Positions 1 to 57,563 of a DNA stretch of 64,000 nucleotides are shown piece after piece. Origin of the DNA: a virus (Duplodnaviria > Heunggongvirae > Uroviricota > Caudoviricetes); IMG/VR virus record IMGVR_UViG_2595698869_000001, positions 107,214 through 171,213 of that record; one strand, written 5' to 3'. The notes under the pieces were generated by a model. That model saw nothing but the letters and a program-made list of their open reading frames with translations. It did not search any database and was not told where the DNA came from. Position 1 is the first letter of the stretch. Each line of letters starts with the position of its first letter. The position numbers and the translations under genes are program-made.

Positions 1-540
1 CACGGTCTCGCGATAGCGCGTCTCGGCGATCCCGACGCTCAGGCCCTTGCTGCACCAGAGCAGCCATTCGCGCCGCCAGTTCTCCTTCAGCGAGGCGGGG
101 ACCACCACCAGCACGCGGCGGATTTTCTTGATCGCGTTGGAGACGCCGATCGCCTGGATCGTCTTGCCCAGACCCGGCGGATCGGCGATCAGGGTGTCGC
201 GCCGCCCCGGCAGGGTGGCGAAGTCGATCCCGGCCCGCTGGAAGGGCTTGAAGTCCCAGCCCTTGGCCTCGACCGCCTTGGAGATCGGCGGCCAGAAATC
301 ACAGTCGGCCTTGTAGGACAGCGCCCGGCTGATATTGGCCAGATGCTCGCGGCGCCCCAGTTCGTCAAGCGCGTTGCTCTTCCAGACCACGCCGGGCACC
401 GCCAGGGCTACGGCCGGGTTGTGGGTGATCAGCGCCCGGCGCGGCGGGCTCCAGGTGAAGCCGGCCTCCTGGAACCGCTTGCGGTCTTCCCATTCGGTGA
501 CGGCCCAGAAGTAGCCGTCGCGATAGTCGATAAAAGCCAT
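1..540 (-). CDS. SNF2-family DEAD/DEAH helicase, N-terminal part (gene continues past window start)
   Basis: Reverse translation from ATG at 538-540 gives MAFIDYRDGY...DPPGLGKTIQAIGV...VLVVVPASLKENW (helicase motif I/Ia); high GC3; no stop before position 1. Confidence 0.75.
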   Translation of the reverse strand, partial: MAFIDYRDGYFWAVTEWEDRKRFQEAGFTWSPPRRALITHNPAVALAVPGVVWKSNALDELGRREHLANISRALSYKADCDFWPPISKAVEAKGWDFKPFQRAGIDFATLPGRRDTLIADPPGLGKTIQAIGVSNAIKKIRRVLVVVPASLKENWRREWLLWCSKGLSVGIAETRYRETV

Positions 541-606
541 GGGCGCCGCACGTGGTTAACGCGCGGACTGTCGCCCATCACGACACTAGATGTCAAGATT
601 CATGAC
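541..606 (-). promoter_or_regulatory. Promoter for SNF2 helicase with GAATC (GANTC) abutting -35 TTGACA
   Basis: minus strand reads tcatGAATCTTGACAtctagtgtcg; same GAATCTTGACA arrangement as at 6639 and 9057. Confidence 0.45.
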
Positions 607-678
607 TTGACCCAAGGCGTTAACCATGTCACGTTCGCCGCACGGCCGAGAGATCGGCCGGTCACAAGGAGAACTATC

Positions 679-978
679 ATGACCCTGATCGTCAAGATCA
701 TGTCGGGCGAGGACCTGCCCGACACCGCGCCCGAAAAGCGCTTCACCCTCCACGCCGGCGTCAAGTCCTTCCATCCGGTGGTCCAGCCCCCGGAGGCTCC
801 CGGCGGCCAGCCCTACTGCTATGTCCGGCTCTACATCGCCGACCCGGTCAAGACCGCCGCCGTGCCCGGCTTTGTCGAGCATGAGGTCACGGTCGAGGCG
901 CCGGGCAACGTCTATGTGATGAACGAGGCCGGCAAGACCATCGCCACCTGGACCCCGCCCTGCGGCAGGCCGAACTAG
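679..978 (+). CDS. hypothetical protein (100 aa)
   Basis: ATG preceded by AAGGAGaactatc; high GC3; convergent with leftward genes. Confidence 0.5.
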   Translation: MTLIVKIMSGEDLPDTAPEKRFTLHAGVKSFHPVVQPPEAPGGQPYCYVRLYIADPVKTAAVPGFVEHEVTVEAPGNVYVMNEAGKTIATWTPPCGRPN

Positions 979-1211
979 GTTTCGCCAGCTTCCGAACCCG
1001 GCGCGTCATCCCAGGCCGCCGGGTTCTTCTGCCAGCCCATCCGCTCCAGGACGGCTTGACAGTTCAGAGGCGCACTACCGTCCTTGGGCTCGTCCCCCAG
1101 GACCAGGAAGACGAACCGCCGTCCCTTGGGGGCTCGGTAACGCAAGCGCAGGTCCCCGTCCTCCGAGACGATCTCGCAAGACGTCATATTGACGACTTCA
1201 CCAGCACGCAT
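975..1211 (-). CDS. hypothetical small protein (78 aa)
   Basis: Start overlaps upstream stop (TGATG), AAGGAAG SD; tail of ORF 975..1880, rest of that ORF is R/P-rich junk. Confidence 0.45.
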   Translation of the reverse strand: MRAGEVVNMTSCEIVSEDGDLRLRYRAPKGRRFVFLVLGDEPKDGSAPLNCQAVLERMGWQKNPAAWDDAPGSEAGET

Positions 1212-1783
1212 CACGCAGCTTCCTTGATTTCCCGAGCCCGCTCGGTCCAGATCATCAGATCGTAGTCGGCCGGGCTCATCCCGGCGCGATCGGCCAGCGC
1301 CAGGAAGGCCTCCTCCAGCCGCCGGTAGACCTTGGCGTTGCCCGGCGTGGCCTTGGGGACCTCGATCCCGTGTTCGGCCAGATGCGCCAGGATGTGGGTG
1401 TCGAGCGCCGCCAGCCGCTGGTTGGGGCGCGAGTGCATCAGGAACATTCGGGCCGTCTTCGGTCCGACGCCGTGGATCGTCTCGAACTTCTCGACCGGGT
1501 CGGCGCGCAGGTCCAGGCCCCAGACGCTCTGGGTGAAGCAGGCCTCCAGGCGCCCGTACTGACCGATGCCGAACATCTCCATGTAGCGCCGCAGCTTGTC
1601 TTCGTGGATGGCGCACCGCAGCTTGTCGAACGGCGAGACGCCGGTCATGGCGTAGAGCATGCGGTCGAGCTTGGCGGCCTGGACGTCGGCGGTCTTGCCC
1701 GCGACGATGCAGGAAAACAGCCAGAATTCCTCCAACTCGGCGTCGGTGCGGTCGAACTTGGTGACGTTGCGCGGGTCGATCAT
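1211..1783 (-). CDS. HhH-GPD superfamily DNA glycosylase-like protein
   Basis: Helix-hairpin-helix motif ...IHGVGPKTARMFLMH...; start ATG overlaps upstream stop (TGATG). Confidence 0.6.
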   Translation of the reverse strand: MIDPRNVTKFDRTDAELEEFWLFSCIVAGKTADVQAAKLDRMLYAMTGVSPFDKLRCAIHEDKLRRYMEMFGIGQYGRLEACFTQSVWGLDLRADPVEKFETIHGVGPKTARMFLMHSRPNQRLAALDTHILAHLAEHGIEVPKATPGNAKVYRRLEEAFLALADRAGMSPADYDLMIWTERAREIKEAA

Positions 1784-2262
1784 CAGGGGGCCTTTGCGGC
1801 GGGGGTGGTCTTGTACTTCTTGGCGTGGCGCAGGCCCTTCCACGAGGCCTTGTAGCCGTCGAGGTTGCGCCAGCCGCCACAACAGGGCGCGCCGCAGGAA
1901 CAGCGCATGTAGGCCTTCTCGGCGTGCCCGCGATTGACTAGGACCTTCATCGCCGAGGCGGTGTATTCGTCCGGCGTGGGAAAGACCTTCTCGGGGTCGG
2001 CCGCCATCTCGATCAGCAGCCGCTTGGGGCCGTCGTTTTGGCACCTGCGGCAGTAGGCGACCTCGTCATAGGCCAGGGCCTCGGCCTCTAGCTCGGCCTG
2101 GGCCTTGACCTCCTCGACGAGTTCCTCGTAGGTCTGAGCCCCGCTCAGGTAACGCGAGACCTCGTGGGTCCTCGGGAGCGCCTTGGCGCAATCCCGACAA
2201 TGGACGGTGTAGGTCGCCGTCCAGGCGGCGCGCTCGATATCGTCGAGATCGTAGGCTGTCAC
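1783..2262 (-). CDS. Cys-rich hypothetical protein (GTG start)
   Basis: High-GC3 C-terminal part of ORF 1783..2490; GTG overlaps upstream TGA (GTGA); CRDC/CRRC/CSCGAPCCGG motifs. Confidence 0.45.
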   Translation of the reverse strand: MTAYDLDDIERAAWTATYTVHCRDCAKALPRTHEVSRYLSGAQTYEELVEEVKAQAELEAEALAYDEVAYCRRCQNDGPKRLLIEMAADPEKVFPTPDEYTASAMKVLVNRGHAEKAYMRCSCGAPCCGGWRNLDGYKASWKGLRHAKKYKTTPAAKAP

Positions 2263-2711
2263 AGGTGCGGAGCCAGTTCGCGGTCCATGCGGTCGAGTTC
2301 GCCACGCTTGTGGAGTTCGGCGACCCGGTGCAGGGCGATCAGTTTCTGCTCGATATAGGTCATGGTCGCGGGCGAACGGGTCGGGAGTTCCGACAGGCCC
2401 GTACCGATGCCGTCCGAGGGCCAGACCACGATGCCGCCTTTCTTGACGTGGGTGAAGAGCCGGCGGAAGTCCTCGTCGATCGTCCGGCACTGGGCGTCGA
2501 CCGCCACCGGATCGTCGCCGAAGAAGTCGGTGTCGTGCATGCCCGGCGTGCGCTTGGTCGCCACGCCCACGGCGTTGGGCTCCCCGCGCATGTGCCCGGC
2601 TTGGCCGCCCATGCCCTTGCGGATCATGTTGTCGCCGAACACGTAGAGCACGTCGGGATTGCGGCGCAGGTCTTCGCGGAAGATGCGGTGTTGGTAGATG
2701 AGGGGCATCGG
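2259..2711 (-). CDS. hypothetical protein (150 aa)
   Basis: ATG with AAGGA SD directly after terminator hairpin; motif VFGDNMIRKGMGGQAGHMRGEPN; N-terminal part of ORF 2259..2879 is junk. Confidence 0.55.
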   Translation of the reverse strand, partial: PMPLIYQHRIFREDLRRNPDVLYVFGDNMIRKGMGGQAGHMRGEPNAVGVATKRTPGMHDTDFFGDDPVAVDAQCRTIDEDFRRLFTHVKKGGIVVWPSDGIGTGLSELPTRSPATMTYIEQKLIALHRVAELHKRGELDRMDRELAPHL

Positions 2712-2720
2712 GCGATCCTT

Positions 2721-2750
2721 GAAAAGGCGGGGACCGGCGAACCGGTCCCC
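2721..2750 (-). terminator. Rho-independent terminator after rIIB
   Basis: GGGGACCGG-ttcg-CCGGTCCCC stem followed by U-tract on minus strand. Confidence 0.55.
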
Positions 2751-2766
2751 TGGAGGTGGGGTTCTG

Positions 2767-4395
2767 TTAGGCGCCGTGCGCCGCGACATAGGCCTTGGCG
2801 TAGGCCTCGCGGTAGGCGGCCTCGTGGACCACGCCCGCTTCGTCGGTGAGGTCCTCGAACGCCTCGTAGTGGACGCCATTGGAGGCGTCCAGGTCGAAAA
2901 CGCCGTCGAGCCGGGCCTGCTGGGCGTCGGCGCGGCCGTCGATGTCGCCCACGAGCTTGGCCCAGGCCGCGTATTGCGCCTCGACCACCGCGTCGAAGGC
3001 GGCGATGTAGGCGTTGCTCATCGCCGCCTCGCTGTCGAGCGGCGATTCGGTGACGTCGTTGTAGCGCTCGCCCTCGAAGCCGTCGAGGATATCGACGATC
3101 GCGTCGGCCAACGCGTCTTCGTCGGTTTCGGCCATCGCCTCGGCGATCGCCTTATGGGCGTCTTGCTCGCCCCAGGTCCGAGCGATGCTCTCGCCCAGGA
3201 CCGCGTCCTCGGTCGGGAAGCCGTTCTCGTCGAGCACCGGATCGGTGCTTTCGGCCGTTTCTTCGTCCTCGGCTTCGGGGCCGGGGTCGGTTTGCTCGGC
3301 GTCAGCCTTGCCGGCGGCGAAGGCCTCGCCATAGCCGCGCACATAGCCCTCCGAGTAGGCTTGCCGGGCCGAATCGGGGCCGTCGCTGAGTTCGCCCGGC
3401 ATGTCGAAAGACGCGTCATACTCCCAGCCGTTCTCGGCGTCGGCGGCCCCGGCCTTGCGACCAGCTTCTTCGCCGGCCTTGTCCCAGTTGGTCTCGACGT
3501 CGTCGAACGACACCGACACCTCGGCGGTGGTCGCGGCTTCCGGCGCCGAGGCCGTCACGGTCACGCCGTCGGCGGCCGTGGCGTCGGTGGCGTCTTCCGG
3601 GTCCTCGACCGGCGCGGCGGCCTTCTCCTCGGCGAAGCGCCGCTCGACGGCGGCCGAGAAGTAGTTCTTGGCGTCGGCCTCGGGGATTTCGGCCAGCACT
3701 TCCATCTTGCAGCAGCGCAGCTTGGCTTGGTTGTAGTCGGTCGGGATCGCCGTCACGTCGCTCGGATTGATCTCGACGATGATGATCTTGCCGACGCCGT
3801 TGTGGAACTGGAGCAGGTAGTCGAACGAGCAGGCGTGCAGGCCACGCGAGCAGAGCGAATTGCGGTTGGGGTCGCACTTGTCGCGGTCCATCTCGACCGT
3901 CGAGCCGATCTTGTATTCGACCGTGCCCGAGTGGTGGTCGAAGAAGTCGGCGCGCACGCGCTTGAAGGCGTGGAAGTTGCCGTCCGGGGTCAGGGGCAGG
4001 CGACCCTTCTCCAGGAAGGCGTAGAGGTCAGCCGCGATCGACTTGTCGGGGTTGAGGTGAACCTTCTCGATGAACTTGGTCAGCGGCTCGATGTCGAAGC
4101 CTTCCGACAGCACGCGCTTGAAGGTGCCGGCCGCCACGTAATCGATCACGTGGCCGTCCAGGCGCAGACGGTCGCGGTCATCGAGGATGACGCGCCCGAA
4201 CGACTGGGCCGCGACATAGGCGGCGACGTCGGCGATCAGGCGGATTTCGTCGATGTCCTGCGGCACCTTGCGCAGGGCTTCCTCCAGCTTCTTGGCCTGG
4301 GCCGAGGCGCGGGGGAACACGCGGTAGCGACCATCGAGCGTGATCGAGATCACGTCGTTGGTGATCGTCGACGCGATCTTCTTGGGGGTGGTCAT
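2767..4395 (-). CDS. rIIB: rIIB-like protein
   Basis: Blocks matching T4 rIIB: ISITLDGRY, FHAFKRVRADFFDHHS, CSRGLHACSFDYL, INPSDVTAIPTDYNQAKLRCCKMEVL; acidic low-complexity tail; AAGGAGA SD. Confidence 0.8.
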   Translation of the reverse strand: MTTPKKIASTITNDVISITLDGRYRVFPRASAQAKKLEEALRKVPQDIDEIRLIADVAAYVAAQSFGRVILDDRDRLRLDGHVIDYVAAGTFKRVLSEGFDIEPLTKFIEKVHLNPDKSIAADLYAFLEKGRLPLTPDGNFHAFKRVRADFFDHHSGTVEYKIGSTVEMDRDKCDPNRNSLCSRGLHACSFDYLLQFHNGVGKIIIVEINPSDVTAIPTDYNQAKLRCCKMEVLAEIPEADAKNYFSAAVERRFAEEKAAAPVEDPEDATDATAADGVTVTASAPEAATTAEVSVSFDDVETNWDKAGEEAGRKAGAADAENGWEYDASFDMPGELSDGPDSARQAYSEGYVRGYGEAFAAGKADAEQTDPGPEAEDEETAESTDPVLDENGFPTEDAVLGESIARTWGEQDAHKAIAEAMAETDEDALADAIVDILDGFEGERYNDVTESPLDSEAAMSNAYIAAFDAVVEAQYAAWAKLVGDIDGRADAQQARLDGVFDLDASNGVHYEAFEDLTDEAGVVHEAAYREAYAKAYVAAHGA

Positions 4396-4416
4396 GGTCG
4401 TCTCCTTGAGACCGGC

Positions 4417-6540
4417 TTAGCTGAACGCCAGGGTGAGCGGGATGGCCTTGATCAGGCCCGGCAGGGCCTTGATGCAGGCGGTGATCTGCGCCTCGGTCGA
4501 GGCGTGGTTCATCATGTCCAGGTATTTCCGGACCGGGTGGTTGTAGTGCTTGTAGACCTTCTGGTGGCCCTCTTCGATGATCTGGATCGTCTTGCTCTTG
4601 GGCGGGGCCTTGTAGGAGCCGTTCTCCTCATAGAGCGACTTCAGGTAGGAGCGCTCGCGCTCGGTCCATTCGGCGATGTTCGCCGCCAGGAACGGCTTGA
4701 GCGCCACGAAGAAGGCCGCCAGCGGCGAGGAGGTCATGCGGCCCAGGGCGTCGTATTCCGCCGGGCAGTGCTTGACCGCGCGGGTGAAGAACCCGAAGGC
4801 CGTCGACGAGGAGGAGAACTTCCCCAGCAGGTTGACGCACTCGTCGAGCGCGATCTTGTGCTTGGCTTGCAGGGCCGCGTCCACGGCCGCGCGCAGCGAC
4901 GGGATGTTGGCCTCCTCGACGTGCTTCTGGGCGGTCGGCGAGGCGATGTAGATGTGCTTGATCCCGAACTTGTTGGCCACCACGAAGGTGTCCTCGGGCT
5001 TCTTGCGGTACTGGTCCGACGAGACCCAGGCCACGCCGCCATCGAGATTGGTCTCGACCTCGACCACCGCCCGCTGCTCGCCCGCCCGCTTGGCCAGGGC
5101 CAGACCCCGGATCGGCGGGGTGTAGACCGCCTGCGGCTTCTTGCCCTCGACCCGGCGCGGCACCACGCCGCGCAGGTCGTCGATGTCGACCTCGACGAAC
5201 TTGGCCTTCGGCAGGGCGCATTTCCAGAACTTGGCGGGCTTGTCGAACGCCAGCAGGAAGTCGCCGGACTTCACCTTCAGCTTCTCCTCCAGGTAGAGGC
5301 GGAAGAGCCGGGCCAGACGGCGGGTCTCGCTCTGGCTGAACTCGCTCTGCGTCGAGGCGTCGCGCGAGGGGTCCATCAGGTCGGAGACGTCGCGGATCAC
5401 GTAGAAGGTTCGCTCGGCGTCATTGTCGAGAGACAGGGTCTTCTCGATGCGGTAGCCCCAGCGCTCGCGGTACTGGTCGAACGTGGCCTTGTAGATGCAC
5501 GACACGCCCGAGAAGGAGATGCTGGAGGTGGTCAGACCCGTCGCCGGATGGGTCACCGACTTGTTGAGGAACTGCGGCTTGAGCTTGTTGTAGGTCTTGA
5601 AGAACTCGACCACCGGCTCGATGTCCTTGACCTTGTCCCAGATCACCATCTCGACCTCGGTGGTGATCTCGCCGATCTTCTTGATCAGGGCCTCGACCGC
5701 GTCGGGCTTGTACTGAATCTCTTCCCGCGACGGGATCGGCTCCACCGTGCCGATCGGCACCGTGATCAGCCATTTGCGGCCCATGTCATGCGGCAGCGTC
5801 AGCCCGCCCTTGTTGGCCAGCGGATAGATCACGCAGCCCTGGCGCACGTTCCAGACCGAGGGCAGGGCCGAATTCTCGTAGGCCGCCCAGGTGCCGTCGG
5901 CGGCCTCGAACTGCGGGGTCCCCAGGCCCTGGCCCAGGTCGATGTTGGTGTCGAACATCGGCGAGTAGCCGAGCGCGACGTTGCGGATTGCCTTCTCGAA
6001 GGCGGGGAAGTCCTTGGCCGCCACGCCGACCGTGACGCGCACCCCGACCGGCTCGGCGCACTCCTCGGTGCCCTGGAGCATGATCCGGGGCCGGCCGCCC
6101 TCGCCGATCGCGGCGGTATAGTGACGCACCACGTCGCCGTCATAGCAGGACACCGAGAACTGGCTGGTGTAGGCGAACGGGCTCTTGGAGCCCAGGCCGA
6201 AGGCGCCGACCAGATCGTCGGTCTGGTCCTTGTCCGACTCGAACAGCGTCGAGTAGAGGAACATCACCTTCTCGTGGCTCATGCCGACGCCATAGTCGCG
6301 GACGTAGAATTCCGGGCGCAGTTCGTTCGGAGCGTGGACGAAGAAGGTGCCCTTGTAGCCCGAAACCAATTGGGAGTCGTAGGCGTTGGTGGTGACTTCG
6401 CGCACCATCGAGCCGATCTTGTCCGAATAGAGACCGTCGATCAGCATCCGGAAGGCCTTGCCGGAGGCCTTGATCGTGAACTCCTGCTCCTCCTCGACCC
6501 CGATGGTTTCAAGGATGACGGGCTCGGCTCCAAGACGCAT
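4417..6540 (-). CDS. rIIA: rIIA-like protein with N-terminal HATPase_c (GHKL) domain
   Basis: N box VREVTTNAYDS, G1 box DYGVGMSHE, G2 box GAFGLGSKS; immediately upstream of rIIB; start ATG at 6540 with GGAG SD downstream of cassette promoter. Confidence 0.8.
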   Translation of the reverse strand: MRLGAEPVILETIGVEEEQEFTIKASGKAFRMLIDGLYSDKIGSMVREVTTNAYDSQLVSGYKGTFFVHAPNELRPEFYVRDYGVGMSHEKVMFLYSTLFESDKDQTDDLVGAFGLGSKSPFAYTSQFSVSCYDGDVVRHYTAAIGEGGRPRIMLQGTEECAEPVGVRVTVGVAAKDFPAFEKAIRNVALGYSPMFDTNIDLGQGLGTPQFEAADGTWAAYENSALPSVWNVRQGCVIYPLANKGGLTLPHDMGRKWLITVPIGTVEPIPSREEIQYKPDAVEALIKKIGEITTEVEMVIWDKVKDIEPVVEFFKTYNKLKPQFLNKSVTHPATGLTTSSISFSGVSCIYKATFDQYRERWGYRIEKTLSLDNDAERTFYVIRDVSDLMDPSRDASTQSEFSQSETRRLARLFRLYLEEKLKVKSGDFLLAFDKPAKFWKCALPKAKFVEVDIDDLRGVVPRRVEGKKPQAVYTPPIRGLALAKRAGEQRAVVEVETNLDGGVAWVSSDQYRKKPEDTFVVANKFGIKHIYIASPTAQKHVEEANIPSLRAAVDAALQAKHKIALDECVNLLGKFSSSSTAFGFFTRAVKHCPAEYDALGRMTSSPLAAFFVALKPFLAANIAEWTERERSYLKSLYEENGSYKAPPKSKTIQIIEEGHQKVYKHYNHPVRKYLDMMNHASTEAQITACIKALPGLIKAIPLTLAFS

Positions 6541-6615
6541 GGCAAACTCCGAAAGGCAGGCTTGAGTGAATGTGTTGCCGATCCTTCTAGCGAGGCGTTC
6601 TGGCTCTGTCAACAC
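6541..6615 (-). promoter_or_regulatory. Cassette promoter + leader for rIIA/rIIB
   Basis: GTGTTGACA-N16-CTAGAAG on minus strand (TGTCAACAC at ~6607-6615 on plus). Confidence 0.55.
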
Positions 6616-6638
6616 ACTCCAGCCTGCCGGGATGTCGT

Positions 6639-6680
6639 GAATCTTGACGTTCCGCGACGCCTGAGGCATGCTCGTATTCA
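6639..6680 (+). promoter_or_regulatory. Rightward promoter with GAATC abutting -35 (TTGACG)
   Basis: gtGAATCTTGACGttcc; diverges from rIIA promoter. Confidence 0.4.
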
Positions 6681-6775
6681 TGCGGAACATCACGGCTGAA
6701 GCGACGGGCAAGACCCGCACTTGCACGTCCGAGGATTATCCCTGGCCCCCGCGCGGGTCCGAGGGATGCGATTGC

Positions 6776-6919
6776 ATGGAAAAGTCCAGCAACCCCAAGC
6801 GCGACTTCATGCTGATCGCCGACCGCACCGGTGTAATCGTATGGTACGCGAGGATGACATGCCCGATTCACGGCCCGAAGATCAAGACGTCGGACGTCGC
6901 AACCGAATCCACGACCTGA
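6776..6919 (+). CDS. possible small ORF (47 aa)
   Basis: Moderate GC3, GAGGGA upstream; overlaps 6859 gene in another frame; uncertain. Confidence 0.25.
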   Translation: MEKSSNPKRDFMLIADRTGVIVWYARMTCPIHGPKIKTSDVATESTT

Positions 6920-7266
6920 TCGTCGGCGACCCTCGGGAGGACGCCCGCTACGCCCGCAAGCTCAGCAACCGCGACAAGACGATGTTCGTCTGCGGGGTCC
7001 TCAACCATCCCGCCTCGGCTTTCGATCTCGATCTCCCGTTCCCGATCGAGGACTGGATCGCCTCGGACGACAATTCCCTGGTCTGCGCCGGGCTCTACCT
7101 GACCGATCTGCGCCTCCAGTTCTACGAGGCCCTGGCGCCGGCCCAGGACGACGAGCAGGCCTTCGTCCGCCAGGGCGAGGCCGAGTTCTGGTATCACCGC
7201 TTCAACGTCATGATCGAGCGGCGCGCCCACGGCGTGCTGGTCACCGACGGGCGCGTCCTCCATTGA
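6859..7266 (+). CDS. hypothetical protein (start uncertain)
   Basis: Very high GC3 from ~6920 on; ATG 6859 has GAGGA SD but first 20 codons have low GC3; true start may lie downstream. Confidence 0.45.
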   Translation: MPDSRPEDQDVGRRNRIHDLIVGDPREDARYARKLSNRDKTMFVCGVLNHPASAFDLDLPFPIEDWIASDDNSLVCAGLYLTDLRLQFYEALAPAQDDEQAFVRQGEAEFWYHRFNVMIERRAHGVLVTDGRVLH

Positions 7267-7637
7267 GCAGCGATCTGCCCCTCTACGATGGCGCGCTGAC
7301 GGGCAAGCTCGTCGGCCGCTTCGTGCGCGCCGGGCAGGCCTTCGACGTCGTGCGTCCCGGCTTCGACGCCCAGGGGATCAAGCGCCAGACCTGGACCCAG
7401 ATCGTCCATGGCGGCGTTCCCGTCTTCGAGGTCAAGGTCCGCACCGATCTCGACAACGTGATCGACCGCTTCGACGAACTGTGGGAGCGCCATATCGGCG
7501 AGGACGAGGACCTGCTCGCCCGCGCCCTGGCCTCGGTCAAGAAGGAGCGGACCGCCAAGTTCCGGGATGGCAAGTCGGGGGTCACGCCGGCCCCGACCGT
7601 CCACGACGTCCGCATCCCCACCGCCTATAGCGGTTGA
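7263..7637 (+). CDS. hypothetical protein (TTG start overlapping upstream stop)
   Basis: Very high GC3 throughout; TTGA overlap with upstream gene. Confidence 0.5.
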   Translation: MSSDLPLYDGALTGKLVGRFVRAGQAFDVVRPGFDAQGIKRQTWTQIVHGGVPVFEVKVRTDLDNVIDRFDELWERHIGEDEDLLARALASVKKERTAKFRDGKSGVTPAPTVHDVRIPTAYSG

Positions 7638-7716
7638 CATTTTGTTGGCGTTCGAGGGTTGACAGCCCGGATTTCATGACTTAGATGCCTCCTCGACGAC
7701 AACGAAGGAGGTTCTC
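7634..7716 (+). promoter_or_regulatory. Tandem TTGACA boxes + CTTAGAT -10 + GACGACAACGAAGGAGG leader for recombinase gene
   Basis: ggTTGACAttttg...gggTTGACAgcccggatttcatgaCTTAGATgcctcctcGACGACAACGAAGGAGGttctcATG. Confidence 0.5.
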
Positions 7717-8343
7717 ATGCCCAAGCGGATCAAAGGCAAGCGCATCGCCCTGCACCGGGCCAAGGTGCTCGACGCCGACGAGTTCAACAACCTGATCGAA
7801 GGCGTGTCCCGCCGCGAGCACGGTCTGCGTGACCGCGTGCTCTTCAAGCTCTCCTTCTATTGCGGCCTGCGCGTCGCCGAGATCGCCGGCCTGGAGTGGC
7901 GCAAGCACCTGCTGGACGCCAGCGGCCGTCTGCGTCCCGCCATCCACGTCACCCACGACATCGGCAAGAACTCGGTCGAGCGCTTCATCCCGATCGAAGC
8001 CTCGCTGGCCGAGGACCTGCGCACCCTGCGCAAGACCTGCCGCGACAAACGCTTCGTCATCTACCCCCTGCGCGTGACCATGCGCGGCGGCCCGGAGAAG
8101 ACCGACGCCAACACCCTGGCGCAATACATGCGCCGGACGTTCCTGGAGTTCGGCCTGGACGGCGCCTCGTCGCACTCGGGCCGCCGCACCTTCATCACCG
8201 ATCTCGCGCGGAAAGCGAACCTCGTGGGTTGCTCGCTCCGGGACATCCAGGGCATGGTGGGTCACAAGCGGATCGAGACCACCGGCAGCTATATCGAGAC
8301 CAGCCGGCAGCAGGACCAACTTGTCGCCCTGGTCCTGCGATAG
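7717..8343 (+). CDS. Tyrosine recombinase, catalytic domain only (208 aa)
   Basis: Box [18 protein letters not shown] (H-x-x-R), [13 protein letters not shown] (catalytic Tyr); no N-terminal core-binding domain. Confidence 0.7.
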
Positions 8344-8352
8344 GAGGGCGCG

Positions 8353-8766
8353 ATGACCTATGTCTGCACCGCCGAGACCGACGAGATCATCAACGCCCAG
8401 CCCGTCGATCTGGACGCGGCCGAGGCCCTGCTGCGTCCGCGTCCGAACTTCGCCAAGGCCAGGGGCGTCTGCCGCGAGTGCGGCGCGCCCAAGAACGAAC
8501 GGCGCCTGGGTGCGGACTTCTGCTCGACCCGCTGCCGCTCGGATTTCCACAACCGGGCCAAGATCGAGGGCGCGTCGCTGATTCACATCGTCAAGCGCTG
8601 GCGGCGCTATCGTCGCCCTGGCGACTTCGCCCTGATGACCAAGATGGCGGACGACCTGATCCGCGCCGACAAGCTCGCCAACCGCAACTTCTATCCCGAC
8701 CCGCCGGCCACGGCTCACGCCAAGGTCGTCGCCACCAACATCGCCGGGCGCCGCAAGGCCCGCTAG
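8353..8766 (+). CDS. Zn-ribbon protein, hypothetical
   Basis: AGGAGGgcgcgATG; CRECGAPKNERRLGADFCSTRC motif. Confidence 0.55.
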   Translation: MTYVCTAETDEIINAQPVDLDAAEALLRPRPNFAKARGVCRECGAPKNERRLGADFCSTRCRSDFHNRAKIEGASLIHIVKRWRRYRRPGDFALMTKMADDLIRADKLANRNFYPDPPATAHAKVVATNIAGRRKAR

Positions 8767-8780
8767 TCCAGGAGTACAGT

Positions 8781-9035
8781 TTGACCACACCGAACCAAGT
8801 CCCCGTCCACACCGTCGAGAGCGGTGGTCACCTCTTCCAGGTCTATGCGGCCCCGGAGAACCACACCCACCGCTACCTCGGCTATTGCGACGGGGCGATC
8901 AGCGTCAGCGGCTCCAGCGTTGACGTCGTCCTGCGGGCCTTGGTGACCAAACATCCGGCGGTGCGGCCCAGCGGCGAGGTGATCGATTTCACCGCCTATC
9001 GCCTCAAACGCCTGGGCGAGGAGTTCGCCGCCTGA
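8781..9035 (+). CDS. hypothetical protein (TTG start)
   Basis: AGGAG + 7 nt + TTG; high GC3. Confidence 0.45.
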   Translation: MTTPNQVPVHTVESGGHLFQVYAAPENHTHRYLGYCDGAISVSGSSVDVVLRALVTKHPAVRPSGEVIDFTAYRLKRLGEEFAA

Positions 9036-9056
9036 CGTCGTGATTTAACACTGTCA

Positions 9057-9126
9057 TGAATCTTGACACCTGTCGGGATTGGAGGCTAGATGGCTCCCGC
9101 CTTTCACCCCCGTCCCGACAGGCTTC
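9057..9126 (+). promoter_or_regulatory. Promoter for primase gene: GAATC-TTGACA-N16-GCTAGATG
   Basis: tcatGAATCTTGACAcctgtcgggattggagGCTAGATg matches host sigma73 consensus TTGACgS/GCTANAWC; GANTC at -35 edge. Confidence 0.55.
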
Positions 9127-12100
9127 ATGTCCCACTCTTTCGATTTCCTCGCCGCGCTGTTCGCGGCGCATGAAGGCCCGATCGCCTTCGAGCACAACAA
9201 CAAGACCGTCAAGACCCGCGATCCCGCGTTCGTGGAAGAGCACGACGGCGAACTCTATGTCTCTCCGACGACCCCGGACGGCCGCGTGGCCTTCGTGTTC
9301 GGCACGGACCAGGACGTCGACGCCGATGTCTGGGAGGCGTTTCGCCTCAAGCCGACCGTCGTCCTGTACAAGGAAAAGACTGGCGACATGATCGTGGCCT
9401 GGGCCTTCGAGGAGACCCAGGAGATCGACGACGTGCGCCGCCTCGCCGAGGCGCTGGGCATGGCCGATCTGGAAGAGCCGATCCCGCTGCCCGGCACCAA
9501 CGGCTGGTCGCTGGTCCGCGCCGAGGAGAGCGACTACTACCTCCTCGACGAGGTCGAGCGCGTCTATGCCCCGGCCAAGAAGACCGGCTACGACGACCCG
9601 CCGAAGAACCGGCAAGAAAATCGGCAATTTTCTGACACGCAATCGGCGCAAGCTGCGGAAAAGGCTGGCAAAAAAGCCTCTTCCAAGACCGGCAAAAAGA
9701 CCGGCGCCGACGCGCCGCCGTGGGACGAGGACCTCGGGACCTACGCCGACGCCGTGATCAAGCGTCCCTATGACGAGGGCGACCCGGCGCTGGCCCAGGA
9801 GATCATCGTCTCCGTCGGGGCCAACAGCAAGTCGATGAACTGGCAACCCAAGGCCATGCCGCTGGGCGCGTTCGTCGCCCAGTTCTGCCAGCACCGCGAG
9901 GGCGCCAAGGACGGCGTCTCCTTCGTGCTGGGCGACATGGTGCCGGGCCAGCGCAAGAAGACGGCGATCAAGGCCCTCTACGCCGTGGGCCTGGACGTCG
10001 ACGTGGGCATGTCCTCGGCGGCGATCGACGCGGCCCTGGCCAAGTTCGGGCGCATGGCCGTCCGCTATACGACCCATTCCCACCTGAAGGCGGTCACCGA
10101 CGTCAAGAAGGACGTCCTGATCAAGTGGTGCGAGCAGGAAGCCGACGGCGCCGACTACGAGGAGGACGAGGTCCTCCAGCGCTACTTCCTGGCCAAGGAA
10201 CTGATGACCCCGGACGTCGCCAAGACGGTCGAGTTCAACGGGACCGAGCACAAGGACGGCGGCATCATGGTCACCGTCAAGCACGCGCCGATCGCCAAGC
10301 ACCGGATCATCGTCCCCCTGGCGGCGGCCTTCGACATCTCCAAGGTCGCGCCGACCCAGAAGGAGGCGATGGACAAGTGGGCCAAGGTCCCGACCGCGCT
10401 CGCCCGCGAACTGGGCGTGCCGCTGGACAAGTCGTGCCTGGACCCCTCGCGCCTGTTCTATCTGCCGCGTCACGCCAAGGGCAAGCCGTTCGAGATCAGC
10501 CTGTTCGGCGGCGACCTGTTCGACTGGAAGAGCCTGACCCTCGACGATCCGTTCGAGGCCGAGATCGCCAAGCTGACCAAGGGGACCAGCAAGTCCAAGA
10601 CCGAGGCCGGTCGCAACCTGGGCCGCTGGTCGATGAAGGCCGCCCACGGCTTCCAGGTCGTCCAGGTCATGGAGGAGCACTGCCCCGACAAGCTGCGCCA
10701 CCAAGTCTCGGCCGGCTACGAGATCGAGTGCCCGTTCGACGAGCTTCACTCCAACGCCGGCGACACCGAGGATCGCGCCTGTCTGGCGGTCAACGCCGGC
10801 GATGGTCCGAGCGAGTGGTTCACCGTCCGCTGCCAGCACGAGTCCTGCCGCGAGTTCACCAATCTCGACATGCTCGGCAAGATGGTCGAGGACGGCTGGT
10901 TCGACCGCGACGTGCTCGACGACGAGACCTACAACATCGTCGAGGCCGAGAACGCCCCCAACCCGCAGGCGGCCAAGAAGATCGAGAAGGAGGACAAGGC
11001 CAAGGAAGCCTATATGCAGGCGATCTTTGACCTCCCCGAATCCGACTTCACCGACGACGACGTTGAAAAGGTCCTGCGCGTCTGCTGCGAGGCCAATCTG
11101 GGGACCCTGGCCGAGAACAAGGCCAAGGAAGCCCTCAAGGCGCGCCTGGGCGTCACCGGCACGGTGATCAACAAGATGTTCAAGGACATGAAGGCCACGG
11201 TCGCGCGCGAGCAGAACGCCGAGGGCGCGGTCAAGGACCCGCTGGGCCGCAGCATCTTCGCCTATGCGGGCGAGTTCAACTTCGACGAGGCCTTCGCCTG
11301 CTGCTTCCGCGCGCTGGTCAACACCAACCGCGAGAAGGACCAGCCGATCTTCTCCTGCTTGCAGGACAAGCCCGTGCGCATGGCGCCCGAGCCGGATGGT
11401 CGTCTGAAGTTCACCGAGATCGGCACGGCCGCCTCCATGGGGGCCGAACTGAACGAGCTTGTCACCTTCGTGCGCAAGAACGAGCAGGGCCAGGGCGCGC
11501 GCGGAAGGGTTCCCGACGACGTGGCGCGCCACGTGTTCGAGAAGGCCTACACCCGCCTGCCGCGCACGCCCGAGATCATGTACACCCCGATCTATACGGC
11601 CGAGGGTGACTTGATCCGCAAGCCCGGCTGGTATCAGAACCTCGACATCCTGATGGCCGACATCGGCTTCGACGTTCCGAAGGTGTTCAGCGATCCGACG
11701 CCCGAGGAGGTCGAGGACGCCGTGAAGCTCCTGACCGACGAGGTCCTGATCGACTTCCCGTTCCTGGACTACGACACCGCCGGCAACGAGCGGCGCGAGC
11801 CGTCCATGGCCAACGCCCTGGCGATGCTGATCACCCCGTTCATGCGCCGCATGATCGATAGCTGCACGCCGGTGTTCTTCGTCTCCAAGCCGACGCCGGG
11901 CACGGGCGGGACCTTCCTGGGGATGGTGCCGATCATCCTGTTCGACGGCGAGGAGCCGGCCCCGATTCGCTACACCCAGAACGAAGAGGAAATGCAGAAG
12001 GCGCTTTTGGCTTCTCTCATGAATTCAAAGGCTTACCTCTTCTTCGACGACGTCAAGGAGTTCAACAACCGGGTGTTGCTGATGGCGATCACCTCGCGTT

Positions 12101-12783
12101 ATATTGGTGGTCGCGTCCTCGGCTCCTCGAAGAACATCGAGATGCCGAACAACTCGATCTGGATCGCCACGGGCAACAACCCGCTGATCTCCTCGGAAAT
12201 GGCCCGGCGGGTGGTCGACATCCGCCTCAACGCCAAGACCTCGGACATCCAGAAGCGCACCTACAAGCACCCTGACTACGTCCAGTGGCTCAAGGCCAAT
12301 CGCGGCGAGATCGTCCACGCGATCCTCACCCTGATCGCCCATTGGATCAACTGCGGCATGCCGAAGTTCACGGCCCGCAAGCGCGCGTCGTTCGAGGACT
12401 GGTCCGAGAAGGTGGGCGGCGTGCTGATGTGCGCCAACATCGAGGGCTTCCTGGACAACCGCCGCTCGGTCGCCGCCGACATGGACGAAGCCGCGATCAA
12501 GCAACTGGTCCGCGACTGGCTGCTCAAGTGGGGCGAGAAGACCCAGGTCAAGATCGCCGACCTGTGGAGCTACGCCTACGACATGGAACTCGACATCGTT
12601 TCGGGGGCCAACGACGACCAGAAGAAGGCCCGCTTCATGCGCATCCTTCCGACCCTGGACGGCCGGACGTTCAAGATGCCGCGCGGCGACTGCATGGTCC
12701 GCGCCGGCTCCGACGCCGACGGCAATGTCACCTATCATCTGGAGCGCCTGAGCGCGACGGAGGAGGTCCTGGAGACTGCCTGA
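9127..12783 (+). CDS. DNA primase / SF3 (D5-, P4-alpha-like) helicase replication protein
   Basis: Zn-binding CPFDELH...CQHESCREF; C-terminal helicase-like VFFVSKPTPGTGGT (degenerate Walker A), YLFFDDV (Walker B), NSIWIATGNN (sensor); K-rich linker; ATG 9127 chosen on GC3 over the track's TTG 9079. Confidence 0.65.
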   Translation: MSHSFDFLAALFAAHEGPIAFEHNNKTVKTRDPAFVEEHDGELYVSPTTPDGRVAFVFGTDQDVDADVWEAFRLKPTVVLYKEKTGDMIVAWAFEETQEIDDVRRLAEALGMADLEEPIPLPGTNGWSLVRAEESDYYLLDEVERVYAPAKKTGYDDPPKNRQENRQFSDTQSAQAAEKAGKKASSKTGKKTGADAPPWDEDLGTYADAVIKRPYDEGDPALAQEIIVSVGANSKSMNWQPKAMPLGAFVAQFCQHREGAKDGVSFVLGDMVPGQRKKTAIKALYAVGLDVDVGMSSAAIDAALAKFGRMAVRYTTHSHLKAVTDVKKDVLIKWCEQEADGADYEEDEVLQRYFLAKELMTPDVAKTVEFNGTEHKDGGIMVTVKHAPIAKHRIIVPLAAAFDISKVAPTQKEAMDKWAKVPTALARELGVPLDKSCLDPSRLFYLPRHAKGKPFEISLFGGDLFDWKSLTLDDPFEAEIAKLTKGTSKSKTEAGRNLGRWSMKAAHGFQVVQVMEEHCPDKLRHQVSAGYEIECPFDELHSNAGDTEDRACLAVNAGDGPSEWFTVRCQHESCREFTNLDMLGKMVEDGWFDRDVLDDETYNIVEAENAPNPQAAKKIEKEDKAKEAYMQAIFDLPESDFTDDDVEKVLRVCCEANLGTLAENKAKEALKARLGVTGTVINKMFKDMKATVAREQNAEGAVKDPLGRSIFAYAGEFNFDEAFACCFRALVNTNREKDQPIFSCLQDKPVRMAPEPDGRLKFTEIGTAASMGAELNELVTFVRKNEQGQGARGRVPDDVARHVFEKAYTRLPRTPEIMYTPIYTAEGDLIRKPGWYQNLDILMADIGFDVPKVFSDPTPEEVEDAVKLLTDEVLIDFPFLDYDTAGNERREPSMANALAMLITPFMRRMIDSCTPVFFVSKPTPGTGGTFLGMVPIILFDGEEPAPIRYTQNEEEMQKALLASLMNSKAYLFFDDVKEFNNRVLLMAITSRYIGGRVLGSSKNIEMPNNSIWIATGNNPLISSEMARRVVDIRLNAKTSDIQKRTYKHPDYVQWLKANRGEIVHAILTLIAHWINCGMPKFTARKRASFEDWSEKVGGVLMCANIEGFLDNRRSVAADMDEAAIKQLVRDWLLKWGEKTQVKIADLWSYAYDMELDIVSGANDDQKKARFMRILPTLDGRTFKMPRGDCMVRAGSDADGNVTYHLERLSATEEVLETA

Positions 12784-13209: not shown

Positions 13210-13321
13210 AATCTCCAGGCGCGGGAATGTCACCCCTGATGACACACCCAGCACGAGACGTAAAGTGTTGACAGACGACACTCGAAGCCGGTATTGAAAC
13301 TCCTGTACGGTAAGGGAAAAC
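13201..13321. promoter_or_regulatory. Divergent control region with inverted repeat TGTCA-N7-TGACA and cassette -35 GTGTTGACA
   Basis: aaTGTCAcccctgaTGACAcaccc...aaaGTGTTGACAgacgacactcg between divergent genes. Confidence 0.45.
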
Positions 13322-13921
13322 ATGATCGACGACGATTCAGACTGGCAGGAAGGCGAGCTTTCGCCGCCCCGCGCCCCGATCACCACCAAGGACCTGACGG
13401 CCGCCGCCCAGAGCGTCGCCGGCGGGCGCATGGCGGCGATGCGGGCGGCCGGAGAATCCCATCGACGCGATTTCCTGATCCTGCGCGGGCCGCTGGGCGT
13501 CGTCCGGCTCTCGTTCGCGCATGTTCCGGTCCTCCAGGCGCTTTGGCGTGTCTGGGCTCGCAAGCGGCTCCAGCGGATCGATGATCCCGGCGCCAATCTT
13601 GCAGAGATCGGAGCCGAGATGGGTTTGGAGGTCAGCGCGGTCCGCCCGGTGATCACCAGCCTGCACAAGAACCGACTGATCCGCACGCGCCGCAGCCACC
13701 ACGGCTGGCAGGGCGTGCGGGCGACCTACTACCCGTCGGAGATCGCCGTCCAGGCCCTGGGCTTGGCGGAGGTCCTCGGCCCTGGTCACGCCGTCCAGGT
13801 GGGGCGTAACGCCTCGGCCTGGGCGAGCCGCAGCCAGACCGAGCCCGGCAACCTGTTCCAACACGCCGCGCTGTTGCGGGGCGGGGCTCATGCCAGGGCC
13901 TACGATTCGGAGTATTCATGA
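13322..13921 (+). CDS. winged-helix (MarR-like) transcriptional regulator, putative
   Basis: ANLAEIGAEMGLEVSAVRPVITSLHKNRLIRTRR HTH-like segment; good GC3. Confidence 0.45.
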   Translation: MIDDDSDWQEGELSPPRAPITTKDLTAAAQSVAGGRMAAMRAAGESHRRDFLILRGPLGVVRLSFAHVPVLQALWRVWARKRLQRIDDPGANLAEIGAEMGLEVSAVRPVITSLHKNRLIRTRRSHHGWQGVRATYYPSEIAVQALGLAEVLGPGHAVQVGRNASAWASRSQTEPGNLFQHAALLRGGAHARAYDSEYS

Positions 13922-26817: not shown

Positions 26818-26881
26818 GAAAAGGGCCTCCGGCGTTGTCGTCGAAGGCCCTTCTAGCGAGTCGGTGTCAGGCTGTCAACAC
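26818..26881 (-). promoter_or_regulatory. Cassette promoter + leader
   Basis: GTGTTGACAgcctgacaccgactcgCTAGAAGggccttcGACGACAACGccGGAGGcccttttcATG. Confidence 0.55.
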
Positions 26882-51346: not shown

Positions 51347-51733
51347 CTAGTCTCCCAGGCCCTGCATGGCGTTGTCGCGACTGTCCTCGGCGTCGGGCCG
51401 AGACGCCAGGGCCGCCAGAAGGTCAACCGAGAGGTGGCGGTTGTAGATCGCCACGCCCTTATACTTGAAAAGCTCGCTGGCTTCGTGGATCAGAGCCCGC
51501 TCAACCGCCGCCCAGGCCGTCTGGACGATCTCGGTGTCGGTGGCGTAGTAGGAGAGCTTCCACTTGCGCCCCTTCCACATCTCCGGCTCGCCGGTGACGG
51601 TGTTGACCCCGTCCTTGCAGACGATCTGGAGCCAGACCTCGGTGCGGCTGGTCCCGAGTCGGAACTCGAAGCCAGGATAGCTCAGGCGGTCGACGATGGT
51701 GCGGATCGATTGGGCGCTGCGACGATTCGCCAT
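51347..51733 (-). CDS. hypothetical protein
   Basis: High GC3. Confidence 0.45.
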   Translation of the reverse strand: MANRRSAQSIRTIVDRLSYPGFEFRLGTSRTEVWLQIVCKDGVNTVTGEPEMWKGRKWKLSYYATDTEIVQTAWAAVERALIHEASELFKYKGVAIYNRHLSVDLLAALASRPDAEDSRDNAMQGLGD

Positions 51734-56773: not shown

Positions 56774-57015
56774 GGCTCGACCTTCCGGACAGTGTAGGAG
56801 AATTCGTCGTGGACGCGACCGTCGAAACTAGCCTCGTAGCCGGGGCCGAGTTCGGCCAGGATGCGCGCCTCGATCTCGGCGAAGTCGATTTTCGCCATCG
56901 CCTGTTCGGCCGCCCGCATCTGCTGGAGGAAGCCGTCCTTGATCTGGCGCCCCGCCTCGGTGCGGATCGGGATGTTCTGGATCGGCGGCTCGGATTTCGA
57001 CAGACGCTCGCCCAT
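56770..57015 (-). CDS. hypothetical protein
   Basis: TGATG coupling with gcrA. Confidence 0.45.
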   Translation of the reverse strand: MGERLSKSEPPIQNIPIRTEAGRQIKDGFLQQMRAAEQAMAKIDFAEIEARILAELGPGYEASFDGRVHDEFSYTVRKVEP

Positions 57016-57563
57016 CAGGCCCTCCGGCGATAGACCCGCACCGGGCGGGTGGGGAGGCGTTTCTCAGGCGGCTTATAGGCGACCAGGGCATGGCTGATGC
57101 AGTAGACGCCTGCCTCGGCGCGGCACCCGCAATGGCCAAAGTCCGGCGAGTTCGGGTCGCCATAGGGCCAGCGGCACATTCCGCGCTTGAGTTCGGCCGT
57201 CGCGAACAGCCGCGCCGGGCGCGGCGGGATGACCGCCGTCCCTTCAGGGACCAGGGCGAGCTTGGGCTTGGCCGGCGGAGCGGGCTTTTCGACCTTCTTG
57301 GGCTTGCGCGCCGTGGCCTTCTTGACCTTGCGGACCTGGATGCCCAGGCCGCGCGTCTTCTTGCGGCGGGCGGTCGGAGGCGGAACCTTCTCGCCCAGTT
57401 CGCCGGCGGCCTTCAGTCGGTCGGCCTTGCCGCAGACGGCGCTCTTGGTGCGCGGCACGCTCAGGCGCTGACCGATCTCCTTGGTCCCGACCGGCTCCGC
57501 CCAGAGCTTCTTGAGCAGGGCGATGTCCTCGTCCGGCCAGTCGGAATTCCGCTTCTTCACCAC
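57015..57563 (-). CDS. gcrA: GcrA-like cell-cycle transcriptional regulator homolog
   Basis: N-terminus SDWPDEDIALLKKLWAEPVGTKEIGQRLSVPRTKSAVCGKADRL and C-terminus CRWPYGDPNSPDFGHCGC...YCISH match the two conserved GcrA domains; AAGGAG SD, GTG start. Confidence 0.75.
   Translation of the reverse strand: MVKKRNSDWPDEDIALLKKLWAEPVGTKEIGQRLSVPRTKSAVCGKADRLKAAGELGEKVPPPTARRKKTRGLGIQVRKVKKATARKPKKVEKPAPPAKPKLALVPEGTAVIPPRPARLFATAELKRGMCRWPYGDPNSPDFGHCGCRAEAGVYCISHALVAYKPPEKRLPTRPVRVYRRRA

Follow-up and report, generated by a model that had tools for sequence, protein, structure and literature searches.

The window analysed here is a 64,000-nucleotide (64-kb) stretch of virus DNA with 100% identity to bases 107214-171213 of CcrKarma (Karma; NC_019410.1), a phiCbK-like siphophage of 221.8 kb, and our subject is a recurrent promoter element in it, hereafter class 2, in which a GANTC site commonly abuts the -35 hexamer. 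Taken genome-wide, 19 copies with GANTC and about four more without it probably make up a promoter class that serves the phage's non-early operons, with a box for a specific protein fused to the -35. Here, genome-wide counts refer to the complete CcrKarma, whose unique genome amounts to 211.6 kb when the terminal repeats are counted once. The relatives compared, whole or in part, were the complete Brevundimonas phage Bajun, CcrColossus (Colossus), CcrSC, Kikimora, and Papperlapapp. Promoters were numbered by putting TTGACA at -35..-30, and the start sites are predicted.

The sequence-only reading of this DNA had pointed to three GAATCTTGAC sites in the window, and we find them exactly at 592-601(-), 6639-6648(+), and 9058-9067(+) (sites 1, 2, and 3). 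Exact matches to the 14-mer TCATGAATCTTGAC lie at 592-605(-) and 9054-9067(+), and one with a single mismatch (TCGTG...) at 6635-6648. Within the window alone, 31 of 100 shuffles matched the three 10-mers with one mismatch allowed, and three copies in 64 kb are not compelling by themselves; it is the whole genome that settles the reality of the element. In fact, CcrKarma holds 18 exact copies of GAATCTTGAC and one of GATTCTTGAC, every one of them inside tGTCGTGAATCTTGACa (19 copies). Altogether, 20 GANTC sites adjoin TTGAC in the unique genome, whereas independence would predict 0.67, and 100 third-order Markov simulations gave 1.4 on average (maximum 5). Outside the fixed motif, GANTC at 1-10 bp upstream of TTGAC was observed five times, with about 7-11 expected. 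The scan was hence positive for abutting sites and negative for the other spacings; the enrichment stems wholly from one motif, and apart from it there is no general association between GANTC and TTGAC. Moreover, GANTC is rare genome-wide, with 297 sites in the unique genome and, when both terminal repeats are counted, 322 versus the 693 expected from composition. Each class-2 copy would comprise a sigma73-type -35 (TTGAC[A/G/T]) and a fixed 10-bp extension, GTCGT-GAATC, at about -45 to -36.

The 19 copies were positioned by hand against the CcrKarma annotation, and every one precedes an annotated gene by 41-231 nt in the same orientation, in either an intergenic or a gene-end position. Among the structural operons headed in this way are those of the portal (gp043), gp048, gp057, the scaffold and major capsid proteins (gp068/069), and the head genes from gp071, along with gp080 and its tRNA block, gp085-087, and the head-tail adaptor. 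Tail and lysis operons are represented by the tail protein gp093, gp097, the tail genes gp101-104, and the endolysin/holin/spanin genes, and those for nucleotides by nrdAB/dut and the exonuclease-to-thymidylate-synthase block. Further copies precede the gp129 methyltransferase, which shares one GANTC-class promoter with the T5 A1-like gp128, and the unit from gp327 through terminase, while on the replication side they precede the SNF2 helicase, gp142-147, and gp148. Class 2 thus heads essentially all non-early operons of CcrKarma. The proposal, made from the sequence alone, of a second promoter class that is separate from the early 'cassette' one and has GANTC abutting the -35 is in this respect supported. 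Its assignment to replication genes, however, does not hold, as the portal, capsid, tail, lysis, terminase, and nucleotide-metabolism operons carry the same element; the link to replication arose because the three copies seen fell in a replication-rich window.

GANTC is present in 19 of the 23 class-2 promoters of Karma. The four box-bearing promoters without it (genome positions 51420, 53775, 80632, and 204382) are intergenic and co-oriented as well, and read GGTGC, GCTTC, GATCC, and GACGC. At 51420(+) and 80632(+), predicted terminators follow with no annotated gene between, and these may be units for small RNAs or small open reading frames (ORFs).

As for related phages, the exact 15-mer is found about 12-15 times in each of two phiCbK-like IMG/VR contigs; elsewhere, the IMG/VR scan returned mostly single, chance-like matches, and many copies were seen only in those two contigs. 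Judging from the sequences compared, the element shared by the Dolichocephalovirinae is GWCGY-N-WWTC-TTGAC, in which a WWTC-rich spacer of 5 bp joins a 5-bp box to TTGAC. In this arrangement, GANTC arises when -40 is G and -39 is A, and G at -40 occurs only in the Karma-like and Bajun lineages. Bajun, with another host genus and a portal gene that is 75% identical, has 16 copies of GANTCTTGAC with the consensus cGAC-N7-(A)CGTCGY-GAATC-TTGAC, such that 16 of its about 24 promoters contain GANTC. At least eight further Bajun promoters keep ACGTCGY and TTGAC and read CGATC (six), CATTC, or CAATC, and so are without GANTC. While the Bajun orthologs of sites 1 and 2 retain GAATC, the promoter orthologous to site 3 reads CGATC and precedes the gp148 ortholog (60% identity) by 58 nt. 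In CcrSC, G(A/T)CGCA-WWTC-TTGAC is found at 7/7 promoters, including those of the portal, scaffold, helicase, and gp148 ortholog, with GANTC at 0/7. Similarly, Colossus has GCCAG-(W)WTTC-TTGACA at 6/6 promoters, among them the orthologs of all three window sites, with GANTC at 0/6, and Kikimora and Papperlapapp show WWWTC-TTGACA with GANTC at the scaffold promoter alone. Since orthologous promoters in relatives do without GANTC, the site is dispensable. An inverted partner of the box, CGAC, is located 7 nt upstream in Bajun and in some Karma copies. As to the Bajun record itself, BAJUN_03320 (ON529858 204505-206895) is annotated on the minus strand, whereas by tblastn it is the plus strand that carries the gp148 ortholog, from 204586 and across the record end; with 1218 aa aligned on the opposite strand, the BAJUN_03320 ORF is probably spurious.

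For comparison, the early class has the form TGGC-N5-GTGTTGACA-N16/17-CTAGAA, followed by a GACGACAAC..AGGAG leader, and is represented by 22 clear copies (18 in the window). These early phiCbK promoters have the same -35 hexamer as class 2, and the same host sigma factor is presumed for both. Upstream, however, they carry TGGC..GTG where class 2 instead has GTCGTGAATC, and their near-consensus -10, conserved leader, and lack of nearby CtrA half-sites are also unlike class 2. By a crude score on predicted -10 candidates, the mean is about 2.6 for class 2 and about 3.4 for the early class, with the class-2 -10 being more varied. The earlier statement that no cassette promoter has a GANTC site is roughly true, though 3/18 early promoters in the window have one in the -35/-10 spacer (TTGAC at 26878(-), 35849(-), and 63413(+); GANTC starting at -19 or -20), and two have GANTC near -58. 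The GANTC at 26878 reads CGAGTCG on the opposite strand and fits the YGAKTCK consensus of GcrA, and by published criteria the three spacer-GANTC promoters would make better canonical GcrA candidates than the three class-2 sites flagged originally.

With regard to the three window sites (Table 1), the -35 hexamers are TTGACA, TTGACG, and TTGACA at sites 1, 2, and 3, and so are all of the sigma73/sigma70 type. Site 1 lies within the divergent gp133/gp134 region and is predicted to drive the leftward gp133, with a weak -10 candidate (CGACAG) 17 nt after the -35. The divergent gp134 promoter uses the same GANTC, read as GATTC and 5 nt upstream, and its TTGAC-N6/8-GTTAACCATGnCA architecture recurs at portal promoters. 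At site 2, the -10 candidate (GCATGC at 6666-6671) is poor, and a gp142 mRNA read from the annotated ATG would be nearly leaderless. At site 3, we could locate the consensus -10 that had been noted behind the motif at the primase gene, and its CTAGAT is of the same -10 type as the CTAGAA of the early class. An E. coli-type promoter scan missed 3/3 of these sites, which is uninformative for Caulobacter-type -10 elements. Downstream of site 2, gp146 has a weak match to a DksA-like zinc finger, and gp141 (45 aa, 6562-6699(+)), which overlaps the two back-to-back divergent promoters, is probably not a gene. Apparent promoter-specific inverted repeats stretch from directly behind the -35 to the vicinity of the start codon at sites 2 (GTTCCGC..N25..GCGGAAC, 6649-6655 and about 6681-6687) and 3 (CCTGTCGGGA..N34..TCCCGACAGG, 9069-9078 and 9112-9121).

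Table 1. Promoter elements and genes of the window (window coordinates) that bear on class 2.
Feature	Position	Strand	Details
gp133, SNF2-family helicase, 5' part	1..540	-	SNF2-rel_dom E 8e-27; gene runs on left of window
CtrA-type half-site	552..559	-	TTAACCAC; in gp133 leader
Class-2 element, site 1	591..606	-	GTCATGAATCTTGACA; GANTC 597-601; -35 TTGACA 596->591
Divergent gp134 promoter (predicted)	607..627	+	TTGACC 607-612, then CtrA-type half-site GTTAACCAT 619-627
Early-class promoter, rIIA/rIIB	6585..6615	-	GTGTTGACA-N16-CTAGAA; back to back with site 2
Class-2 element, site 2	6634..6649	+	GTCGTGAATCTTGACG; between rIIA (start 6540, leftward) and gp142
gp142-gp147 operon, downstream of site 2	6680..9035	+	gp142 annotated ATG 6680; gp145 Phage_integrase family tyrosine recombinase
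Class-2 element, site 3	9053..9068	+	GTCATGAATCTTGACA; between gp147 and gp148
Site 3 -10 CTAGAT	9086..9091	+	GCTAGAT 9085-9091; 17 nt past TTGACA
gp148, 1218 aa, replication-associated	9127..12783	+	Weak PHROG matches to DNA polymerase/primase families
gp150, candidate box reader	13322-13921	+	Early-class promoter GTGTTGACA 13265-13273
gp234, GcrA-family	57015..57563	-	PF07750 E 5.4e-25

The upstream box is G+C-rich, invariant within each genome, and often accompanied by an inverted partner, and these are the features of a site for a specific protein. As it moreover varies among phages that share a host (Karma GTCGT, Colossus GCCAG), a dedicated and probably phage-encoded factor would be its most plausible reader. 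We thus picture the GWCGY box, together with its inverted partner, as the docking site of a sequence-specific protein that would act alongside the sigma73 holoenzyme of the host. Activation is favoured over repression by the weak -10 elements, and such a protein would resemble a class-II activator beside the -35, a repressor operator being less likely. Here, GANTC would probably be a passenger or a modulator rather than the unit recognised, and any cell-cycle input would more plausibly arrive through the clustered CtrA-type half-sites. Candidate readers include gp150, a winged-helix protein (MarR/IdeR-like) with an invariant C-terminal tail that is present in 49/49 related phage records. Its annotation as 'MotA' in Brevundimonas phages was rejected, being unsupported by Pfam or fold search, which indicated a MarR-like winged helix instead. 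Other candidates are gp110, with HTH_3 and a CI/LexA-like architecture, and gp151, a helix-turn-helix protein.

Comparable arrangements are known from the T4 MotA box, the Mu Pm and late promoters (Mor/C), and lambda CI, a class-II activator at PRM, where, as in class 2, a phage-specific invariant box stands at a fixed distance. Like phage middle and late promoters, class 2 has many copies on non-early operons, a weak core, and a plausible early DNA-binding protein. Unlike T4 middle or Mu promoters, though, it retains a consensus-like -35, and unlike the T4, Mu, and lambda cases, its activator is only a candidate and it also heads genes reported to be early. In particular, the MotA-type layout of T4, with a box that replaces the -35 and an activator of MotA fold, is not what we find in class 2.

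Several observations weigh against a dedicated phage activator. In a phiCbK RNA-seq study (McLaughlin 2023; PMC10688885), replication genes are described as early and structural and lysis genes as middle or late, and since one class heads both early and middle/late genes, there can be no single on/off factor and additional determinants must set the timing. Despite their common box, Karma and Bajun show no special conservation in the gp150 recognition helix. GWCGY is common to Karma and CcrSC, both of which grow on strain CB15, and a host reader is thus possible. Likewise, the WWTC-TTGACA core is like an extended -35 consensus, and RNA polymerase may simply read some of it directly. As for symmetry, that of GTCATGAATCTTGAC is dyadic at 12/15 positions, while the commoner GTCGT form is less symmetric; the near-palindrome GTC..GA.TC..GAC was dropped as evidence, having an estimated p of about 0.1 given GANTC.

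The GcrA homolog claimed for the window is real. This protein, gp234, matches solved GcrA chains with E values of 8.5e-19 (7ye1_G) and 1.7e-11 (SID chain 5yix_B), and its C-terminal domain for binding sigma70 domain 2 is well conserved, but the DNA-reading helix is changed. In the GcrA crystal structure, the methyl pockets are built from R33, N34, and I37, and the bases are read by these three together with H41 and R42 (PMC5887438). The gp234 residues at these five positions are K/S/C/D/R, with G38 and R42 kept and the three methyl-pocket residues replaced, and the same K/S/C/D/R is common to the GcrA proteins of Karma, Rogue, and BL10. In Bajun, the GcrA-family protein (L116:30523-31230(-)) has two tandem N-terminal DNA-binding repeats, with recognition helices that differ from those of Karma. 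The idea that Bajun has the motif without a GcrA, which came from a blank tblastn with the Karma protein at E<=1e-3, was discarded, as annotation and Pfam reveal this divergent family member. Domovoi encodes a GcrA-like protein (L117:1366-1911(+)) that matches the N-terminal half of the GcrA profile alone, and GANTC is sporadic there. Phage GcrA homologs are accordingly wider spread and more varied than tblastn with the phiCbK protein suggests. GcrA-family genes were found in the Karma-like, Rogue/BL10, and Bajun lineages, where the promoter GANTC is fixed or dominant, and were not detected in Colossus, CcrSC, CcrBL9, CcrPW, or Kikimora, where it is absent or sporadic. However, Bajun is the nearest outgroup of the Karma group, and one ancestral event may therefore account for this co-occurrence.

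CtrA-type sequences, by comparison, cluster at class 2. TTAACCA is present 15 times in the unique genome, with 10 copies falling within -60..+90 of the 19 class-2 promoters (about 50-fold enrichment) and none near the 22 early promoters; TTAAC lies within the same interval at 12/19 class-2 and 0/22 early promoters. Site 1 has two CtrA-type half-sites (Table 1), and site 3 has TTAAC upstream at 9044-9048(+). In terms of published CtrA motifs (TTAA-N7-TTAAC, or the half-site TTAACCAT, at or near the core promoter), class-2 promoters would qualify as putative CtrA targets. The portal promoter, for example, has GTTAACCATG between the -35 and -10, and this is kept in Karma, Bajun, Colossus, and CcrSC. 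Host transcription is repressed by half-sites that cover the -10 (PMC4287350), and other phiCbK promoters are bound and regulated by CtrA (PMC9437464). The promoters described by Mascolo 2022 in phiCbK-like phages are alike in having CtrA-type motifs in promoter regions and in the idea of a host cell-cycle input, but there full CtrA sites are concentrated in the terminal repeats (gp005, gp018), whereas class 2 has half-sites (TTAACCAT/C) in or just downstream of promoters in the rest of the genome. On these patterns, the clustering would fit the 'lytic deferment' proposal better than GcrA does.

What remains to be weighed is whether something other than a dedicated box protein governs class 2. 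According to the sequence-only reading, CcrM methylates the GANTC at -40..-36, and host GcrA or gp234 on sigma73 recognises it and activates, thereby tying phage expression to the cell cycle; we regard this as unlikely. It agrees with the fixed GANTC of the 19 Karma promoters, the genuine family membership and conserved sigma-binding region of gp234, and the conserved base-contact residues of Karma, Rogue, and BL10, and the gp234 gene itself is apparently behind an early-type promoter. Moreover, fixed GANTC is confined to lineages encoding a GcrA-family protein, Colossus and CcrSC have yielded neither, and -38, the centre of GAATC at all three sites, is on roughly the same helical face as -20 and -30. 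The GcrA/CcrM sigma70 promoters of the host (Haakonsen 2015; Wu 2018, 2023) are likewise sigma70-type promoters with GANTC and a GcrA-family protein, here phage-encoded. Nevertheless, the phage heptamer TGAATCT equals AGATTCA, which is the 32nd of 32 NGANTCN contexts ranked by GcrA occupancy (Haakonsen; PMC4647560) and falls outside the high-ranked YGAKTCK context. In fact, when the two sites of the mipZ promoter were changed to 30th- and 32nd-ranked contexts, AGATTCA included, affinity fell to the unmethylated level (PMC4647560). Nor is the claimed reading of a methylated GANTC next to the -35 borne out by position, as the promoters that GcrA regulates have their boxes around -20 and from +2 to +30 (PMC4647560), refined by Wu et al. 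to -20+-1, -30+-2, and +5..+30, with none further upstream, which was ascribed to linker length (PMC9976885); from the predicted starts, the class-2 GAATC at -40..-36 is outside all of these. Against it too are the altered methyl pocket of gp234, the Bajun recognition helices that differ over the same DNA motif, the Bajun (at least eight, site-3 ortholog included) and Karma (four) promoters that keep the box without GANTC, the Domovoi-type phages with a GcrA-like protein and no fixed GANTC, and a co-occurrence that may go back to one event. The phage methyltransferases are gp126 (a C5 enzyme) and gp129 (an amino-methyltransferase; genome 101106-101720(-)), the latter showing FxGxG and then NPPY, not the CcrM (beta-class) type, and having no CcrM-type Pfam match. 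Of the proposed CcrM/GcrA wiring, then, the promoter class, the abutting GANTC, and the GcrA-family protein stand, while context, position, methyl pocket, the lack of replication specificity, and the dispensability of GANTC speak against it. Two variants might still give these parts a role, with a retooled gp234 re-aimed at the GTCGTGAATC box as sigma cofactor for the 19 promoters, or the GANTC methylation state counting phage replication, and to these we would give a slim chance. Yet more doubtful is a methylation-state switch without GcrA, in which full, hemi-, or no methylation of the GANTC at -38 would alter the affinity of RNA polymerase or the box factor, and activity would track replication or CcrM state. 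Host promoters with GANTC outside the -35/-10 spacer do group apart in their timing, with activity lowest at 40-60 min, and ctrA P1 and dnaA are methylation-sensitive (PMC4287350). GANTC, though depleted genome-wide, is also retained at 19 promoters. However, the same promoters in relatives lack GANTC. CcrM, moreover, is confined to late predivisional cells.

The CtrA half-sites could alternatively belong to a host G1-phase module, in which the box would be a SciP-type half-site (GNCGC) that acts with the TTAACCAT half-sites in swarmer-cell control and 'lytic deferment'. The published SciP motif is GCGNC-N5-GNCGC, with the half-site GCGNC (e.g. GCGAC), and CtrA motifs accompany 80% of these (PMC4287350). 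The Bajun and CcrSC boxes (GTCGC/GACGC) do fit GNCGC, many Bajun copies read GCGAC-N7-GTCGC, and both the TTAACCA enrichment and the CtrA regulation of other phiCbK promoters (PMC9437464) would suit such a module. Karma boxes, though, match at 3/4 specified positions (GTCGT) or only 2/4 (GTCAT, the two copies at window sites 1 and 3), GCCAG of Colossus does not fit, the partner spacing is N7 rather than N5, and host sites occur at -60..-90 (PMC4287350), not at the -45..-41 of the Karma box. Furthermore, GCGNC has low information at 66% G+C, and the match was found after several host motifs had been tried, and so we hold this module to be quite improbable. A factor-independent strong promoter seems to us somewhat less remote, albeit still unlikely; here host RNA polymerase would itself contact the extension, through sigma region 4 or the alpha C-terminal domain, as an extended -35 or UP-like element that offsets the poor -10. 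All lineages share the WWWTC-TTGACA core, and the classical 'tcTTGACat' consensus with its A/T-rich upstream stretch resembles it. The replication genes of class 2 are, in the RNA-seq study cited above (PMC10688885), reported as early, which would also suit promoters that need no phage factor. What such a promoter does not account for is a GWCGY/GCCAG box that is G+C-rich, is invariant per genome yet different between same-host phages, and often has its inverted partner 7 nt upstream, all of which are better explained by a sequence-specific box protein.

In the literature searched, we found no description of phiCbK-type promoters (Gill 2012 has the word 'promoter' once), and among the literature matches listed for GAATCTTGAC, none is on phiCbK; the class-2 element thus appears undescribed there. 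On the strength of the comparisons made here, its GANTC looks like a lineage-specific detail and not a GcrA switch on replication genes, which corrects the tempting inference that a promoter-near GANTC means GcrA control. Because phiCbK-type phages are standard tools of Caulobacter cell-cycle research, a sharply defined 15-17-bp element on nearly every non-early operon provides a ready map of transcription units, and its natural variants (GAATC, CGATC, ATTTC, and the GCCAG box) lend themselves to mutational tests. The clustered CtrA half-sites link class 2 to the proposed CtrA-dependent 'lytic deferment', and the class-2 promoters make a target set for the role of the long-puzzling phage GcrA homolog. 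Should a retooled GcrA or a methylation counter prove true, this would be the first function for a phage GcrA homolog and a new geometry for GcrA-type activation.

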